From IMG/VR virus record IMGVR_UViG_2541047712_000007: 16,704 nucleotides of DNA; one strand, written 5' to 3'. Below, in pieces: positions 1-16,704 of this stretch. Source of the stretch: a virus. Lineage: Duplodnaviria; Heunggongvirae; Uroviricota; Caudoviricetes. Numbering within the stretch: the stretch's first letter is position 1; each line of letters begins with the position of its first letter. Made by a program: the position numbers and the translations under genes. The notes below the pieces were generated by a model. It worked only from the letters and a program-made list of their open reading frames with translations, did not search any database and was not told where the DNA came from.

Positions 1-1461
1 ATGAAAAAATTACTGCGTCTTTTTTTCCCGCTCTCGCTGCGGGTACGTTTTCTGTTAGCAACGGCAGCAGTAGTATTGGTGCTTTCGCTTGCCTACGGAA
101 TGGTTGCGCTGATCGGTTATAGCGTCAGTTTCGATAAAACCACGTTTCGGCTGTTACGTGGCGAGAGCAATCTGTTCTATACCCTTGCGAAGTGGGAAAA
201 CAATAAGTTGCATGTCGAGTTACCCGAAAATATCGACAAGCAAAGCCCCACTATGACGCTAATTTATGATGAGAACGGGCAGCTTTTATGGGCGCAACGT
301 GACGTGCCCTGGCTGATGAAGATGATCCAGCCTGACTGGCTGAAATCGAATGGTTTTCATGAAATTGAAGCGGATGTTAACGATACCAGCCTCTTGCTGA
401 GTGGAGATCATTCGATACAGCAACAGTTGCAGGAAGTGCGGGAAGATGATGACGACGCGGAGATGACCCACTCGGTGGCGGTAAACGTCTACCCGGCAAC
501 ATCGCGGATGCCAAAGTTGACCATTGTGGTGGTGGATACCATTCCGGTGGAGCTAAAAAGTTCCTATATGGTCTGGAGCTGGTTTATCTATGTGCTCTCA
601 GCCAATCTGCTGTTAGTGATCCCGCTGCTGTGGGTCGCCGCCTGGTGGAGTTTACGCCCCATCGAAGCCCTGGCAAAAGAAGTCCGCGAACTGGAAGAAC
701 ATAACCGCGAATTGCTCAATCCAGCCACAACGCGAGAACTGACCAGTCTGGTACGAAACCTGAACCGATTGTTAAAAAGTGAACGCGAACGTTACGACAA
801 ATATCGTACGACGCTCACCGACCTGACCCATAGTCTGAAAACGCCACTGGCGGTGCTGCAAAGTACGCTGCGTTCTCTGCGTAGTGAGAAGATGAGCGTC
901 AGTGATGCTGAACCGGTAATGCTGGAGCAAATCAGCCGCATTTCACAGCAAATTGGCTACTACCTGCATCGTGCCAGTATGCGCGGCGGGACATTGCTCA
1001 GCCGCGAGCTGCATCCGGTCGCCCCACTGCTGGACAATCTCACCTCGGCGCTGAACAAAGTGTATCAACGCAAAGGGGTCAATATCTCTCTCGATATTTC
1101 GCCAGAGATCAGCTTTGTCGGTGAGCAAAACGATTTTGTCGAGGTGATGGGCAACGTGCTGGATAATGCCTGTAAATATTGCCTCGAGTTTGTCGAAATT
1201 TCTGCAAGGCAAACCGACGAGCATCTCTATATTGTGGTCGAGGATGATGGCCCCGGTATTCCATTAAGCAAGCGAGAGGTCATTTTCGACCGTGGTCAAC
1301 GGGTTGATACTTTACGCCCTGGGCAAGGTGTAGGGCTGGCGGTAGCCCGCGAAATCACCGAGCAATATGAGGGTAAAATCGTCGCCGGAGAGAGCATGCT
1401 GGGCGGTGCGCGGATGGAGGTGATTTTTGGTCGCCAGCATTCTGCGCCGAAAGATGAATAA
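1..1461 (+). CDS. phoQ: Sensor histidine kinase PhoQ (complete, 486 aa)
   Basis: Full-length ORF. Two hydrophobic segments flank a periplasmic domain with an acidic patch ([10 protein letters not shown]). H-box [13 protein letters not shown] and ATP-binding boxes ([25 protein letters not shown]) are present. The sequence matches E. coli PhoQ as I remember it. Confidence 0.97.
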
Positions 1462-7796: not shown

Positions 7797-8954
7797 TTAA
7801 TCGTCGTCCTGTGGCAGTTCCAGAATCTTGATCGCGTTCGAATCCACCACGCCACCGCCTAAATATTTCTGCGTGAAAATTTTGATGAAGCCCGGCTCTG
7901 TGAGGTTGTCCGGTCTGGTGCGAACACCTGTTTCGTGATCAACAATGTAGTAACCGCGTTTGAAGTCACCCAGGGCAATAACGTTATCAGGCATAAACTC
8001 CAGATATTCGACCGGAAGGCCCAGCAACGTATCAGGATCACCCGCCTGTAAACGGTCGCGCCAGATGTAATCACCGTTCGCGTTCTTCACCTTCTGAAGT
8101 TTTGCCGCCGTCGTGGAGTTAACCACCCAGACCGCGTTTTTGCGGTATTTTTTACGTAATGCAAATTTCAGGTCGATCAGCGGGTCCGCAGATGTCCACG
8201 CCAGAGATTCGGAAGGTTTAATTACCTGCAACGTACCAAAATCACGCTCTTTGTCGTTCTTCTCTGCACGGGGTACGGATAAAAAACCTTTTGCTTTTTT
8301 GTCACCGTCGCCCACAACCAGATCGCTTTCTTCGGTTTCCGTGAAGGTGTCGCCAATCTCACCCGTCAGCCATGAAAGGATGTCCACATCGGAAAAATCC
8401 ACGATTTCCTGTGTGGTGCGCGGGTACGCATAGACCGGATACAGCTTAATGCTCACCTCGTTAATCTGCGGGGTGCTGGTCTGTTCGCGTGTCTTACCCT
8501 CTTCACCGTGGTTAACGGTCGCACCGCCAGCGGAAACAAGCTGCTTAAACTCGTTGCTGCTGATTTTCTTCACGGTACAGATGCGGCGCATGGTGGATTC
8601 ATCCGTCAGCATTCGCATGATTTCGGTGTTCAGTTCGGGGATAACGGTATAACCACCATCAGCGGGAACGCCTGTACTTAATGCGCGGGTTTCACCTGTC
8701 AGAATGTAGTTGCGTAGTTCTGCGGGGTCAGTGGTCTGGCTGCTTTTACCTGGCTTGCTGCGCTCTTCGTCTGCAATGGCTTCAAGGCGGGAAATGTCTT
8801 TATCGAGGGATTCAGCTTTAGCGCGTAATTCGTCAAATTTTGCGCCCTCAGCATCGTTAAGACTGCGGTTTTCTTTTTCCGCGTTCTCCAGCATGTCGCG
8901 CATCTGATTTTTAATGGCGGTTTTCTGCTGGCGTAATTCGATTATTCTCGGCAT
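7797..8954 (-). CDS. Major capsid protein, HK97 fold, with N-terminal coiled-coil delta/scaffold-like domain (385 aa from the ATG at 8954)
   Basis: HK97-family capsid-like C-terminal two thirds. The N-terminal roughly 90 aa are charged and heptad-like, and no separate scaffold gene exists. ATG at 8954 with AGGA upstream; the ORF track extends to a GTG at 9002. Confidence 0.92.
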   Translation of the reverse strand: MPRIIELRQQKTAIKNQMRDMLENAEKENRSLNDAEGAKFDELRAKAESLDKDISRLEAIADEERSKPGKSSQTTDPAELRNYILTGETRALSTGVPADGGYTVIPELNTEIMRMLTDESTMRRICTVKKISSNEFKQLVSAGGATVNHGEEGKTREQTSTPQINEVSIKLYPVYAYPRTTQEIVDFSDVDILSWLTGEIGDTFTETEESDLVVGDGDKKAKGFLSVPRAEKNDKERDFGTLQVIKPSESLAWTSADPLIDLKFALRKKYRKNAVWVVNSTTAAKLQKVKNANGDYIWRDRLQAGDPDTLLGLPVEYLEFMPDNVIALGDFKRGYYIVDHETGVRTRPDNLTEPGFIKIFTQKYLGGGVVDSNAIKILELPQDDD

Positions 8955-9210
8955 AAAAAAAGTCCTGGGGTTAAGTAAGGAACTCCAGGACGCGGCAAAC
9001 ACTCAACCGTTTTTCATAAGGAAATCAGTAATCGCACCGATCGTTTTCCCGCCTGGTAATGAATATTGGCGAGCACATTAACAGGCGGGAAAATGGCCCC
9101 AGCGTCCTGGCACCACGGGCGAGAATAATCATGATTCAGGTCGGGTAAAATATGCCGTTCCGGTCAGCGAGCAACGTGGAACAACCACGAACAAATAATT
9201 TACAAAACAT

Positions 9211-13369: not shown

Positions 13370-13586
13370 GGTGCACCTCCTGCACATCAGCCATGATAAT
13401 TTTTCCGGCCTTATCCAGTGCCTGATCGGCTTTTAGCTGCACAAATGCTAAATAATGGAAGATGCATTCTGATTCTCTGGCTGCGTGTTTATGCGCCCTG
13501 TCAGCAATAACAGAAATATCAATAAGCGCGTGCATCAGCGTAGTGAGCGCGGCGGCTGCTGCGTCCGGTGTGGTTTTATTGCACAT
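13362..13586 (-). CDS. Hypothetical protein (74 aa)
   Basis: ATG at 13586 with AGGGGGT Shine-Dalgarno. Confidence 0.5.
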   Translation of the reverse strand: MCNKTTPDAAAAALTTLMHALIDISVIADRAHKHAARESECIFHYLAFVQLKADQALDKAGKIIMADVQEVHHA

Positions 13587-13782
13587 GGCCTACCCCCTGG
13601 CGAATACGGGCAGCGAATACCATCACGCAGCCATCAGGAGATTGCTGACGCGCTTCCTGTTCGCTGGTGGCCTCGATGGTAATCACGCGCGGTTGTGCCG
13701 TGCTCAGGGCGATAAAACGCCAGATGTATTTATTCAGGTCGTGCGAATCCCGCCCTTGCGGGTGTGTGGTATGATTTCTCAT
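13576..13782 (-). CDS. Hypothetical protein (68 aa), first gene of the leftward operon
   Basis: ATG at 13782 with GAGG 5 nt upstream. It is the C-terminal, plausible part of a 430-aa track ORF whose remainder is antisense to plus-strand genes and the operator region. Confidence 0.45.
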   Translation of the reverse strand: MRNHTTHPQGRDSHDLNKYIWRFIALSTAQPRVITIEATSEQEARQQSPDGCVMVFAARIRQGVGHVQ

Positions 13783-13878
13783 AGCTACCTCGATACTTTC
13801 GCTATCGTTGGTGGTTAGAAGCCCGGTTAGTGTTAGCGCACTGCCGGGTTTCGTCGTTTCTGCACCTTGCGCCAACAA

Positions 13879-13931
13879 GGTGTTGAACACCAATTTAAAC
13901 CCAGGTGTTAAACACGTCAAGTGTTGAACAC
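13879..13931. promoter_or_regulatory. Triple palindromic operator in a divergent promoter region
   Basis: Three copies of the palindrome GTGTT-N-AACAC: gtgttgaacac (13880-13890), gtgttaaacac (13905-13915), gtgttgaacac (13921-13931), lying between the leftward operon start (13782) and the plus-strand RHH gene (13982). Confidence 0.7.
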
Positions 13932-13981
13932 TTATTTTTTTTCCTGCATACTGCATTTGTTTTTTATGAGGGGTACACCAC

Positions 13982-14161
13982 ATGGCGACAAAAGCAGTAA
14001 ACGCAAAATCACAAACCGTTGCGGCAAGGGTTCCGCATGAAGTTATGAACAATGTTGAGGCGGTAAAAATGCCTGGCGAAAGTACGGGGCAATTTGTTAC
14101 TGCGGCATTAAAACGAGAAGTTGAATATCGCCAGCGGCGCAAGGCCAAAGAACCAGAGTAA
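13982..14161 (+). CDS. Ribbon-helix-helix (Arc/CopG-like) DNA-binding protein, 59 aa; candidate island repressor
   Basis: ATG at 13982 with GAGGGG Shine-Dalgarno. The translation has an RHH-like beta-strand (QTVAARVPHEV) followed by two helices. Below the ORF-track length cutoff; I translated it directly. Confidence 0.6.
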   Translation: MATKAVNAKSQTVAARVPHEVMNNVEAVKMPGESTGQFVTAALKREVEYRQRRKAKEPE

Positions 14162-14218
14162 TCACCATCAGCGCCGTGGTGTGAGGAACTACGGCGCATT
14201 GCTATGCAGGACAACACA

Positions 14219-14392
14219 ATGACCGATAAAGAATTGACCAAAACATTATCACCGGCACGGAAAAGACGGCGCAGAAAGATAGAGCATGAATCAGAAAGAT
14301 TCGCGCCATGTGCTTTTGCCCTTGAGCAATTCCTTAAAGAGTACAGGGAAAAGCGCTCATTGCAGGTATGGCAACGAACTGAACCAGACTGA
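14219..14392 (+). CDS. Hypothetical small basic protein (about 57 aa)
   Basis: ATG at 14219 with AGGA 7 nt upstream (track ORF starts at 14204). Arg-rich (RKRRRRK); followed by a plus-strand terminator. Confidence 0.3.
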   Translation: MTDKELTKTLSPARKRRRRKIEHESERFAPCAFALEQFLKEYREKRSLQVWQRTEPD

Positions 14393-14470
14393 TTGCATTG
14401 CCCACCAGCCGCAAATGTGGCATTGTTGGCAATGCTCATGCGTTGGGGATAACGTGTAGCTTGTGTCGAG

Positions 14471-14500
14471 GGGCCACCGTAGCGGGTGGCCTTTGTTTTG
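14471..14500 (+). terminator. Rho-independent terminator (plus strand)
   Basis: Hairpin ggccacc-gtagcg-ggtggcc followed by tttgttttg. Confidence 0.6.
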
Positions 14501-14594
14501 CCCGTTATTCGGCAATTGTGGCGCTTCTCCACATGGTTGATATAATCCCACTGCTCAGATTCATTTTTTGCGCAGTAGGTTAATTGTTCACAAA

Positions 14595-14626
14595 GGCGCT
14601 CCGGCAACGGGGCGCTTTTTGTTTTT
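14595..14626 (+). terminator. Rho-independent terminator (plus strand), GNRA loop
   Basis: Hairpin gcgctccg-GCAA-cggggcgc (8 bp including one G-U) followed by tttttgttttt. Confidence 0.6.
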
Positions 14627-14920
14627 ATTAGTTTGTAGAAACCTGACTCAGAGATAATGCTCATATTCTGATTGCCGTCAGGGGTGTAAGTTAAATTTAC
14701 TCCCTTTTTATCATCAAACATCTGCAACGCTCTGGCGTTAGCAATATTGGTTTCACTCCCGCCAGTAAGGCCGGAAATAACCGGAATAATTTCGGCAAAA
14801 TTTTGCAGATTCTGTTTTTCAGGACGAACGAAGCCCCGCCCTTGTTCGGGAGAATATCCAGTATTCATGGTTAGATCTCTGTATTAGTGGATGGGTGGCG
14901 GCTGTGTGCCGCCAGCCTGA

Positions 14921-15109
14921 TTAGTGAACTGCCTCGCAGCTGTCCTTCCATGCCAGAACTTCGGATAAAGACCAGCCAACGGAACGACCGCCCAGCTTAC
15001 GCCGTGATGGGAATTGTCCGGCTTTTTCCAGGCGGTACCGACATGAGCGGCTCAGGCCTGTAAGTTGCTGACATTCTTTTTCACGTATAAAGCGATCTGT
15101 GCTTAACAC
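14921..15109 (-). CDS. alpA: AlpA-family transcriptional regulator / excisionase-like protein (62 aa)
   Basis: QQLTGLSRSCRYRLEKAGQFP...KLGGRSVGWSLSEVLAW matches the AlpA winged-helix signature. GTG start at 15109 with AGGGGGAA upstream. Confidence 0.8.
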   Translation of the reverse strand: MLSTDRFIREKECQQLTGLSRSCRYRLEKAGQFPSRRKLGGRSVGWSLSEVLAWKDSCEAVH

Positions 15110-15113
15110 AATT

Positions 15114-15195
15114 CCCCCTTTGTTGTTTCTTAAAGAGTCATTGGGTGGATTATTGGGTTGGGTTGTGTCGGATTGTGTCAGGGTGTTTGTGGAAT
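15114..15195. promoter_or_regulatory. TTGT-rich phased direct repeats immediately upstream of alpA
   Basis: 10-bp register: ttgggtggat / tattgggttg / ggttgtgtcg / gattgtgtca / gggtgtttgt (15141-15190), preceded by tttgttgtttc (15117-15127). Confidence 0.45.
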
Positions 15196-15390
15196 GGCAA
15201 ACACTGGCGGCGGTCGTTTTACAGAAGCAGGGGGAATGAGAATAAAAACTCTTTTAATTCATTATGATGCAAAGGCATAAAATTTTACTTTTACGCCTTT
15301 TTTACATATTTTTAAGAGTGATTCGCCAGTGTATAAAAAAACAGTACACCTATAAAAATCAAATGGTTATTACGATGGCTGATTTTTAAC

Positions 15391-15450
15391 CCGTTGTTCC
15401 ATTTTGTTCCTTGTTGTTCGTCGTTGTGTCTCGTTGTTTCACGTTGTCCG
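15391..15450. repeat. Six tandem 10-bp repeats (NCGTTGTNYC) 3' of int
   Basis: ccgttgttcc / attttgttcc / ttgttgttcg / tcgttgtgtc / tcgttgtttc / acgttgtccg in an exact 10-bp register. Confidence 0.6.
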
Positions 15451-15474
15451 CGTCCTGAAAAATCGCAAAAAAAA

Positions 15475-16704
15475 TTATATTTCTCTGGCTATTGGCAATG
15501 TGGTTACGTTTTCATGTGTTCCCGCCAGTATCCCTAACCGCTCCGTCCACATATCCAGCGCGTCACGTTTCGCATCCAGATAACGGGAATGGTTATAGAC
15601 TCGTTGCATCCCTGGCATCTGATGACCTGTAAGCTGCTCCACGACGTGAGGATCCACGCCTAAATCGTTCAGCATCGTTGTAAAGGTGCGCCGGATGTCA
15701 TGCAGTGACCAGTGAGGGTGTTTTAGCCTCCTGTGCGCTAATCTGCCGTACTGCGACACGCTTGTTTCCTGTTTCACTTCCCCCAGCAATAAGCCCGTGT
15801 GCCTGTTCTGCTCCACCAGCTGCGTGACGAACGGCAGTATTGCTTCCGGTATGGGCCGGAATATTGCCACCTTCGTTTTGCTGTGTTCTTTCGGCACGGT
15901 CCAGAGCATTTCGGTAAAATCCCACTCGCTGATCTCCGATAACCTCAGTTCTACCGTCCGGCATCCGAAAACAATCAGGAGGCGGATTAGTGCGACGTAG
16001 TAAGGGGAAAATATTTTTTTGTCCAGTGCCTGCAATAATTCGCCAAGTTCTTTGGTGCTTAAGACGCGCTCGCTTATATCCGGTTTTTTCCCAACGTCCG
16101 CCACACTCATATCATCAAGAACGTTGCTGATTGCATAGCGCCGCCTCCGGCAGAACTTAAGCGCCTGTTTGCACGTCTGTAGCAAGAATCCGGCAGTAAC
16201 AGGCGTTCGCTTTGCCACCTGGTCAAAACAGGCCAGCCAGTGCCGTAGCTCGCATTTATCCAGCGGCATAGCACCAATGTGCTGTATTACGTGATTATTA
16301 AGGCGCTTTTTCAGGGCGGCATAATCCACGCGGTTTTCCTTTGCGTACGACTCAAGCCAGTAGGTGAGCGCATCGCCAACCGTTACCGGCTTTAACGCTT
16401 CCTGTACGGTGTAATTCATTTCATGACGTGGATTTTTCCCCTCTGCCAGCCATGCGCGACACTGGGCGGCTTTTTCCCTGGCTGATTTCAGGCTCAGATC
16501 AGGATAATTTCCCAGCTTAATGCGTTCCGGTGGTGCCCCCCTTCCCGTTCCGGCCCTGTAAGTGAAATACCAGGTTAAAAGGCCACTGGTTGAATGCCTG
16601 ACGCTCAGGTTTCCACCGTCATTAAGAAAGGCTGTTTTTTGGGCGGGTGTGCCGTTGATTTTCCTCAGCTGTGTATCGCTCAGTTTGTTAAGTGCTCTGC
16701 TCAT
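15475..16704 (-). CDS. int: Tyrosine integrase, P4-like family (409 aa)
   Basis: C-terminal catalytic signature LHDIRRTF...GHQMPGMQRVYNHSRY (His-x-x-Arg box plus terminal Tyr) and a long N-terminal arm/core-binding region. Start codon is the last three bases of the window. Confidence 0.93.
   Translation of the reverse strand: MSRALNKLSDTQLRKINGTPAQKTAFLNDGGNLSVRHSTSGLLTWYFTYRAGTGRGAPPERIKLGNYPDLSLKSAREKAAQCRAWLAEGKNPRHEMNYTVQEALKPVTVGDALTYWLESYAKENRVDYAALKKRLNNHVIQHIGAMPLDKCELRHWLACFDQVAKRTPVTAGFLLQTCKQALKFCRRRRYAISNVLDDMSVADVGKKPDISERVLSTKELGELLQALDKKIFSPYYVALIRLLIVFGCRTVELRLSEISEWDFTEMLWTVPKEHSKTKVAIFRPIPEAILPFVTQLVEQNRHTGLLLGEVKQETSVSQYGRLAHRRLKHPHWSLHDIRRTFTTMLNDLGVDPHVVEQLTGHQMPGMQRVYNHSRYLDAKRDALDMWTERLGILAGTHENVTTLPIAREI

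Follow-up and report, generated by a model that had tools for sequence, protein, structure and literature searches.

Positions 14393–14920 of an Escherichia coli phage satellite probably form the front of a P4 eta/kil-like read-through frame with terminators on the opposite strand

The stretch of DNA analysed here (the window; 16,704 nucleotides (nt), IMG/VR record IMGVR_UViG_2541047712_000007) is an Escherichia coli chromosomal island adjoining phoQ. Its gene set includes large and small terminase subunits, a portal protein, an S78 protease, a capsid protein, SSB and a D5-type primase, and the island is a capsid-forming phage satellite of the phage-inducible chromosomal island (PICI) type. 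The right end of the window carries small genes, an Icd-like gene, alpA and a tyrosine integrase gene, and this regulatory end is collinear with EcCICFT073 of strain CFT073. We examined positions 14393–14920, part of the "Bro zone" that separates alpA from the replication genes. Over 14393–14630 the window and CFT073 are 100% identical, and over 14631–14868 they are 99.6% identical. The stretch is, in our judgement, probably the front of a minus-strand read-through frame resembling eta/kil of P4, with terminators on the opposite strand.

The frame in question comprises 430 codons on the minus strand, from an ATG at 14868 to 13576, and 14393–14868 is its 5' third. It lies directly downstream of alpA (14921–15109, minus strand; Pfam Phage_AlpA, E = 3e-18), its ATG sitting 52 nt beyond the alpA stop codon at 14921–14923. 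From there, the frame runs through two hairpins (T2, then T1), the antisense of two small plus-strand genes and a promoter/operator region before reaching an Icd/Kil-like end. This end is a nested C-terminal gene of 68 amino acids (13576–13782, minus strand), identified by the NCBIfam model phage_ICD_like (NF033153), which matches residues 381–424 of the long frame with E = 1.8e-18. The Icd-like core resembles P4 Kil, and the 68-residue form is annotated separately in NCTC86. The counterpart of the whole frame in CFT073 is c1487, which is listed for EcCICFT073 as "icd-like" with 428 amino acids (PMC6092414).

What distinguishes this frame is its openness. None of the 362 codons ahead of the Icd-like core is a stop codon, whereas the other two minus-strand frames have 20 and 23; dinucleotide-preserving shuffles carried a mean of 14.4 in-frame stops, and none of 20,000 was stop-free. 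All related E. coli loci that we fetched have the frame open. In five of these loci (L004, L005, L007, L009 and L010 in our numbering) it is likewise stop-free, though their leader and operator regions are just 52–67% identical to the window. A sample of 60 IMG/VR contigs, reduced to 51 distinct versions, gave the same picture: most versions are open for 305–765 codons and end in an Icd-like C-terminus, and each control frame carries 17–45 stops. An earlier note, made from the letters of this DNA, had described 14393–14920 as lacking a credible gene and its minus-strand frame of 430 residues as implausible. Neither description holds, as the stretch is the 5' third of a frame kept stop-free, which is open in related loci, corresponds to c1487 and shares the eta/kil arrangement. 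In this sense of being kept free of stops, no other feature of the stretch is conserved as strongly. Separately, one relative (L015, positions 1–1755; NZ_AP042554.1) holds two tandem ylcI cassettes, and the minus-strand frame spans the pair with more than 585 open codons.

The content of the frame behaves differently from its openness: lineages differ wholesale in what the frame contains, and openness alone is retained. The frame is thus conserved for being translatable and not for what it encodes. Synonymous and non-synonymous counts are unusable where it overlaps the plus-strand genes, because third codon positions are shared there, so non-overlapping stretches were used instead. In 14393–14630 and 13783–13981, which have no coding on the plus strand, substitutions are spread without three-base periodicity; in the spacer between T1 and T2, polymorphic columns divide 12/8/14 by codon phase, with the third position lowest. 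These observations bear on the possibility that the frame is a genuine multi-domain protein, with a Bro-like N-terminus, a linker and an Icd-like C-terminus, whose product is itself functional. Such a protein would fit current annotation, since a database search with the middle of the frame returned 1705 predicted proteins, many of 300–470 amino acids and named "Icd-like protein" by NCBI, some of them bearing Bro-N or Ash domains at their N-termini; some relatives' frames carry PF10554. It would also fit P4, whose Eta is a translated product of 197–199 amino acids according to the P4 record and the account given in PMC10111431. We nevertheless regard it as improbable, given the missing codon periodicity, the wholesale exchange of content between lineages, the truncation of both N-terminal domains (described below) and a path that takes in a promoter/operator region and two terminators and runs antisense to a family-assigned gene.

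The three hairpins that the earlier note had placed in this stretch are present, by sequence and by fold, and two of them do have the features of plus-strand terminators that it had proposed. T1 (14469–14499, plus strand), ~105 nt past the stop codon of orf62, has the stem GGCCACC/GGTGGCC at 14472–14491 followed by TTTGTTTT. T2 (14592–14626, plus strand) has a stem of 12 pairs at 14592–14619, a GCAA loop and then TTTTTGTTTTT; on the minus strand, the same DNA encodes "KSAPLPER". T2 folds at −20.5 kcal/mol (z = −5.1; matched by none of 200 shuffles) and is also picked by a terminator scan, while T1, at −18.5 kcal/mol (z = −2.05), is marginal on energy alone. Since a simple count of terminator-like patterns does not exceed chance (4 sites vs 4.5 expected), it is the pairing kept in relatives that identifies T1 and T2 as genuine. 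Among 33 distinct relatives, 95.9% of cells in the two stems pair, compared with 44–64% when the partners are slid, and compensatory changes occur at three pairs, a level reached by none of 500 shuffles. The T1 stem, for instance, becomes GGCGACC/GGTCGCC in other lineages, and a C:G pair of T2 becomes A:U. The loops of both vary freely, and four relatives carry a different hairpin in place of T2 at the same site. Read on the minus strand, both hairpins lack a following U-tract (T2 has CUUUGUG there), and both are therefore one-directional, plus-strand terminators. From their place between the small plus-strand genes and alpA, they are able to halt rightward transcription before it enters alpA and int in the antisense direction.

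The third hairpin, H3 (14893–14917, minus strand), sits between the alpA stop codon and the ATG at 14868, with the stem TGGCGGC/GCCGCCA at 14896–14914. As the earlier note had said, it has no U-tract, and this is true of either strand, so that it does not qualify as an intrinsic terminator. It folds at −20.2 kcal/mol on the plus strand (z = −3.6) and −17.3 kcal/mol on the minus strand (z = −5.3). In close relatives, the stem is invariant and the loop variable, with no covariation, and L013 has a broken stem; in other island types, the slot after the alpA stop is taken by canonical terminators (stem plus U6). H3 is probably an attenuating or stabilising RNA hairpin.

Published reporter data indicate that minus-strand transcription passes through this region. 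The primers of pJP1290 (PMC6092414, supplement) map to window positions 15507–15487 (minus strand) and 14435–14454 (plus strand). Its insert, read from 15507 to 14435, therefore contains the alpA promoter region, alpA, H3, the ATG at 14868, T2 and T1, with the reporter beyond 14435. This "ORF3" fusion is AlpA-dependent (pJP1290 vs pJP1291, p = 0.0011), and helper phages activate it (PMC6092414). Because AlpA-dependent activity is measured beyond T2 and T1, and the insert is 100% identical to the window over 14393–14630, minus-strand transcription crosses both hairpins.

The N-terminal part of the frame is an in-frame chimera of two antirepressor fragments, one of AntA and one of BRO-N type. 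The first 48 codons (14725–14868, minus strand) are AntA/AntB-derived, judging by their likeness to the antirepressor of L004 (strain 98202): codons 6–48 share 77% amino acid identity with the N-terminus of the intact 266-residue AntA/AntB protein in the same slot there, and 14723–14850 is 89% identical to L004 3543–3670 at the nucleotide level. Codons 42–86 (14611–14745, minus strand) are a BRO-N fragment, fused in frame to the downstream frame at "...FYKLIKTKSAPLPER"; codons 42–89 are 69% identical to residues 57–107, the middle, of an intact 192-residue BRO-N protein of strain EC93. The Pfam Bro-N match is partial (profile positions 34–85 of 96) and, at E = 0.06, below the cut-off. The frame holds no complete Bro-N or AntA domain, and its AntA/AntB likeness is confined to the first 48 residues. 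The incompleteness of both domains explains why the Prokaryotic Genome Annotation Pipeline (PGAP) calls an incomplete BRO-N pseudogene here (14137–14664), whereas in other genomes it calls an "Icd-like protein" of 300–470 amino acids. Past "...FYKLI", the frame enters T2 directly ("KTKSAPLPER"). As a separate observation, a motif (..P.QGRGFVRPE..) within the first ~15–20 codons is common to otherwise different Bro-zone genes, including AntA-type genes, BRO-N-type genes and deletion fusions (14868–14800, minus strand, and relatives). Of the 1,905 E. coli genomes with a match to the region, a large fraction match the stretch 14820–14920 at ~80% identity.

Relatives differ in where the frame starts, yet the start is always found where the preceding gene ends. 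The ATG of strain 98202 overlaps the stop codon of ant (CATGTGTAA). In L009 and L012, which have no ant gene, it lies 19 nt past the alpA stop, and T2 forms codons 5–12. The window, L006 and L013 carry three different deletions or fusions, every one of them in frame. On this comparison, the starts look like a translation relay from alpA onward.

The truncated antirepressors could also be taken at face value, as a decaying pseudogene beside ordinary convergent terminators, with the open frame a by-product without a role and the hairpins separating transcription units. PGAP's incomplete BRO-N pseudogene, the truncation of AntA and BRO-N, and the canonical form of T1 and T2 as plus-strand terminators between convergent genes would all agree with decay. 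We rate this explanation as quite unlikely, because the avoidance of stops (P ~5e-7 in the window) recurs in many diverged lineages, the three independent deletions all kept the frame, and minus-strand transcription crosses both hairpins. The earlier suggestion that the region insulates convergent units holds in one direction: T1 and T2 can stop rightward transcripts, but the minus direction is read through, as pJP1290 indicates.

On the plus strand, within the long frame and antisense to it, lies a small cassette. Its first gene (13982–14161, plus strand) belongs to the YlcI/YnfO family (NCBIfam NF041551, E = 2e-16) and is a candidate type-specific repressor. Its substitutions on the plus strand are fewest at second codon positions, intermediate at first and most frequent at third positions. 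Together, the family match and this pattern favour ylcI as the constrained gene of the overlap. The second gene, orf62 (14204–14392, plus strand), comes from the list of open reading frames (ORFs), and PGAP calls a 57-residue version at 14219–14392; it shows an excess of substitutions at third positions (9/20/11). The ylcI gene and its adjacent leader are swapped as one unit between lineages, being 64% identical to CFT073 within flanks of ~100% identity. Upstream, at 13878–13931, are three operator-like repeats, AGGTGTTGAACAC, that overlap divergent promoter-like sites. Each type has its own repeats of a common form, AGGTGTnnnnCAC (for CFT073, AGGTGTGGCCCAC; for L010, AGGTGTCAGCCAC), and the repeats co-vary with the YlcI-like protein. 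The YlcI-like protein and its repeats are thus a candidate repressor/operator (immunity) module for Gram-negative PICIs. Because repeats overlapping divergent promoter-like sites are a repressor/operator signature, the reading we prefer for T1 is that it terminates a repressor cassette. The minus-strand promoter-like site is TTGACG-17-TAAATT (13920–13892), flanked by operator repeats; such sites are no more numerous than in shuffles. Repeats of the AGGTGTnnnnCAC form also lie between ylcI and icd in L007 (1985–2029), L010 (1986–2068) and L005 (1853–1936). A ribbon-helix-helix fold for the YlcI-like protein is no more than a guess, and a search of the literature on YlcI/YnfO function returned nothing useful.

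The terminator T2 stands behind a different signal. An extended −10 element, TGATATAAT (14538–14546, plus strand), is a perfect match and the sole TGnTATAAT in the window, ~45 nt upstream of the T2 stem. Across 41 distinct relatives, which were retrieved with a bait lacking TGATATAAT, its nine bases never change, and both flanks vary. The minus-frame codons beneath it (TAT ATC) do not undergo even synonymous change among relatives, so it is the DNA, and not the protein, that is constrained. In strain 98202, the spacer before T2 is unrelated, and it too carries a promoter-like sequence, TTCACT-17-TATAAT. The geometry of promoter and terminator predicts an antisense RNA of ~74 nt (14553–14626, plus strand), beginning ~7 nt past the −10 element and ending at the U-tract of T2. 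It would fold at −24.8 kcal/mol (z = −4.4), with a U-rich stretch before T2 and a long U-tail. A small plus-strand RNA from TGATATAAT to T2 is accordingly plausible as a prediction, in line with the "one or two" small RNAs that the earlier note had envisaged. It would cover codons 81–105 of the frame in the window, approximately codons 3–25 in relatives of the L009/L012 type and approximately codons 5–30 in L004. A minus-strand ORF of 19 codons in the same spacer was rejected on inspection, as it varies non-synonymously and has no ribosome-binding site.

Between orf62 and T1 lies a near-invariant block of 40 nt (14396–14435), containing a Chi site (GCTGGTGG, minus strand, 14402–14409) and an 8-bp inverted repeat (GCATTGCC...GGCAATGC), most variants of which are compatible with G-U pairing on the plus strand. 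The block is invariant in loci whose flanks are 75–80% identical. A 128-nt query spanning the block and T1 (14385–14512) matches 753 of 5426 complete E. coli genomes. The block could be an RNA element of a 3' untranslated region (3'UTR) or a recombination junction. Two overlapping ORFs, one of 61 residues on the plus strand (14398–14583) and one of 64 on the minus strand (14357–14551), have no significant family match and were dropped.

That the main product of the region should instead be one or two trans-acting plus-strand RNAs regulating host or helper-phage genes (the orf62 3'UTR with the conserved block and T1, or the spacer RNA ending at T2) is very unlikely: the invariant extended −10, the strong terminators with long U-tails, the U-rich stretch before T2 and a block far more conserved than its flanks are compatible with it, but no Rfam family matches, the block lacks a promoter of its own and folds no better than shuffles (z = −0.9), and pairing to the island's translation starts, where alone targets were sought and not in host or helper-phage genes, is no better than shuffled. 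In that last comparison, the predicted RNA reached at best −20.7 against a shuffled mean of −21.9, giving no signal of a target in trans. Rfam gave no match at the gathering score anywhere in the window. At E ≤ 10 over 13400–15500, it gave no C4 or isrK RNA and no family that explains the hairpins, only terminator-like chance matches. Rfam's model of SymR matches 13783–13855 (plus strand) weakly, with 33 bits where the gathering score is 61 (E = 6e-4). The matching stretch lies antisense to the Icd-like gene's leader, and its last part is a hairpin with a U-rich run behind it; it may encode an antisense RNA directed at a toxic Kil/Icd-like gene.

Returning to the eta/kil-like frame, P4 offers a model of how such a frame could work. 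As summarised in PMC10111431, P4 eta lies downstream of an alpA homolog and translation of Eta prevents termination; the promoter internal to eta yields only short transcripts and Kil, and translation of full-length Eta requires the late promoter upstream (Forti et al. 1999, cited there). By analogy, ribosomes trailing RNA polymerase from the AlpA-activated upstream promoter would prevent termination in the satellite, and induction would thereby reach icd and the primase operon. On the opposite strand, T1 would end the convergent cassette of the putative YlcI-like repressor and orf62, and T2 would end the short RNA begun at the −10 element at 14538–14546 and back up T1. That RNA, antisense to the start-proximal part of the frame, may damp translation of the frame in the uninduced state. 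We hold the anatomical part of this reading with high confidence, and the mechanism (translation-dependent read-through, repressor and antisense control) with moderate confidence.

Several points weigh against this reading and should be set beside it. The frame is interrupted in a few relatives (L037, L019 and L067), and within the ylcI/orf62 overlap, the shared third codon positions make coding on the two strands inseparable. The canonical terminator that follows alpA in some relatives means that read-through from the alpA promoter may not be general. The expression evidence comes from the CFT073 reporter and not from the window's exact locus, and pJP1290 does not show that translation is what permits read-through. 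The putative internal promoter matches the consensus at just 9 of 12 positions. The fold of the YlcI-like protein is not assignable, a single-sequence model (predicted local distance difference test, pLDDT, 75) giving two helices without a significant PDB match. The comparison with P4 is also imperfect: the ATG of the window lies 52 nt past the alpA stop with H3 between, whereas the P4 start overlaps; the C4 and isrK models of Rfam reveal no CI/seqA RNA here; and the window frame has no Phage_ASH (PF10554) match at E ≤ 1.

A more ambitious version of the same idea would unite these parts into a switch on two strands, consisting of a frame that need only be translatable, an embedded YlcI repressor with AGGTGTnnnnCAC operators and a sar-like RNA of ~74 nt. 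Ribosome transit from the AlpA-dependent promoter would carry transcription across 1.3 kb and on to the replication genes, and convergent transcription from the alpA promoter would silence the repressor cassette. In the uninduced state, the sar-like RNA would keep the frame from being translated and so bring about termination. We put this forward tentatively, as a possibility that is more doubtful than not. If true, it would combine P4-style translation-dependent antitermination, a protein repressor and a cis-antisense RNA in one device, and would answer what keeps Gram-negative PICIs quiescent, a role for which a PICI repressor has long been sought. Our analysis thus offers hypotheses for how widespread satellites stay silent and for how induction by AlpA reaches the replication genes. 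It also carries a warning for annotation, in that the "Icd-like proteins" of 300–470 amino acids and the "BRO-N pseudogenes" are one frame, conserved for openness and not for sequence.

Some features of the wider setting were also recorded. The left end of the window is chromosomal and contains phoQ (1–1461, plus strand), encoding PhoQ sensor, HAMP, HisKA and HATPase domains. On the right, int is followed in matching genomes by roxA and pepT, so that phoQ, roxA and pepT bound the insertion site of the island. Chi (GCTGGTGG) occurs 15 times in the 16.7 kb of the window, against 0.61 copies expected from shuffles; the E. coli genome averages ~1 Chi per 4.5 kb, which would give ~3.7 copies for this length. 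The sites include 1734, 2978, 5757, 6202, 7206, 7334, 9424, 9565, 9899 and 11199, and further 11460, 12319, 13663, 14402 and 15813. In relatives, Chi lies at module junctions, after T2 in L014 and L015 and after the alpA hairpin in L004. In a collection of one genome per species, two exact-pattern scans, with the conserved block and with the spacer between T1 and T2, found no match. A BLAST search with 14380–14640 found no match among deposited phages, and this stretch is therefore not shared with P4 itself.

The likeness to P4 is one of arrangement. In both systems, a long frame lies directly downstream of, and in the same orientation as, an alpA/vis homolog; the frame contains an internal promoter region (in the window, a promoter-like site) and ends in a small Kil/Icd-like C-terminal protein; and the long form is translatable only from a regulated promoter upstream. 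In the window and most of its relatives, the long upstream extension is kept free of stops. In the P4 record, the open frame runs from 8821 to 8171, with three Met codons (MMM) at the stop of vis (8764–9030) and the 65-residue Kil at its C-terminus. The window frame is twice as long, and only it hosts an antisense coding cassette, two intrinsic terminators and a promoter on the opposite strand.

Two immunity regions provide further parallels. In immI of P22 (mnt, arc, ant and sar; PMC2629481 and references therein), as here, small repressor genes (here a candidate one) stand beside an antirepressor-type gene, and a short antisense RNA, here predicted, has its promoter inside the antirepressor unit and ends at a strong terminator. 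The two differ in that there is no sequence similarity and no Rfam match, and in that the antirepressor gene of the window is a truncated chimera. The predicted RNA also differs from sar in its position over codons 81–105 and not over the ribosome-binding site, being start-proximal only in relatives of the L009 type. In immI of P1 (c4 RNA-icd-ant), an Icd-family gene and an Ant-type gene likewise share one regulated operon, in which translation of an upstream frame controls downstream expression, as we propose here; the order in the window is reversed, with the ant-like part upstream of icd, and no c4-like RNA was found.

The closest published counterpart is c1487, the "ORF3" of EcCICFT073 (Fillol-Salom et al. 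2018, PMC6092414), which is the same type of locus as the window frame, with a ylcI-plus-operator module that is 64% identical to that of the window. PMC6092414 treats c1487 as a gene named by similarity, and does not describe the stop-free, non-conserved nature of the frame, its antisense cassette, its terminators or its internal plus-strand promoter. What our analysis adds is that the stretch linking alpA to the replication genes has the layout of the P4 eta/kil antitermination device, with a candidate repressor cassette and its type-specific operators, two conserved terminators and an invariant promoter for a predicted short antisense RNA on the opposite strand.

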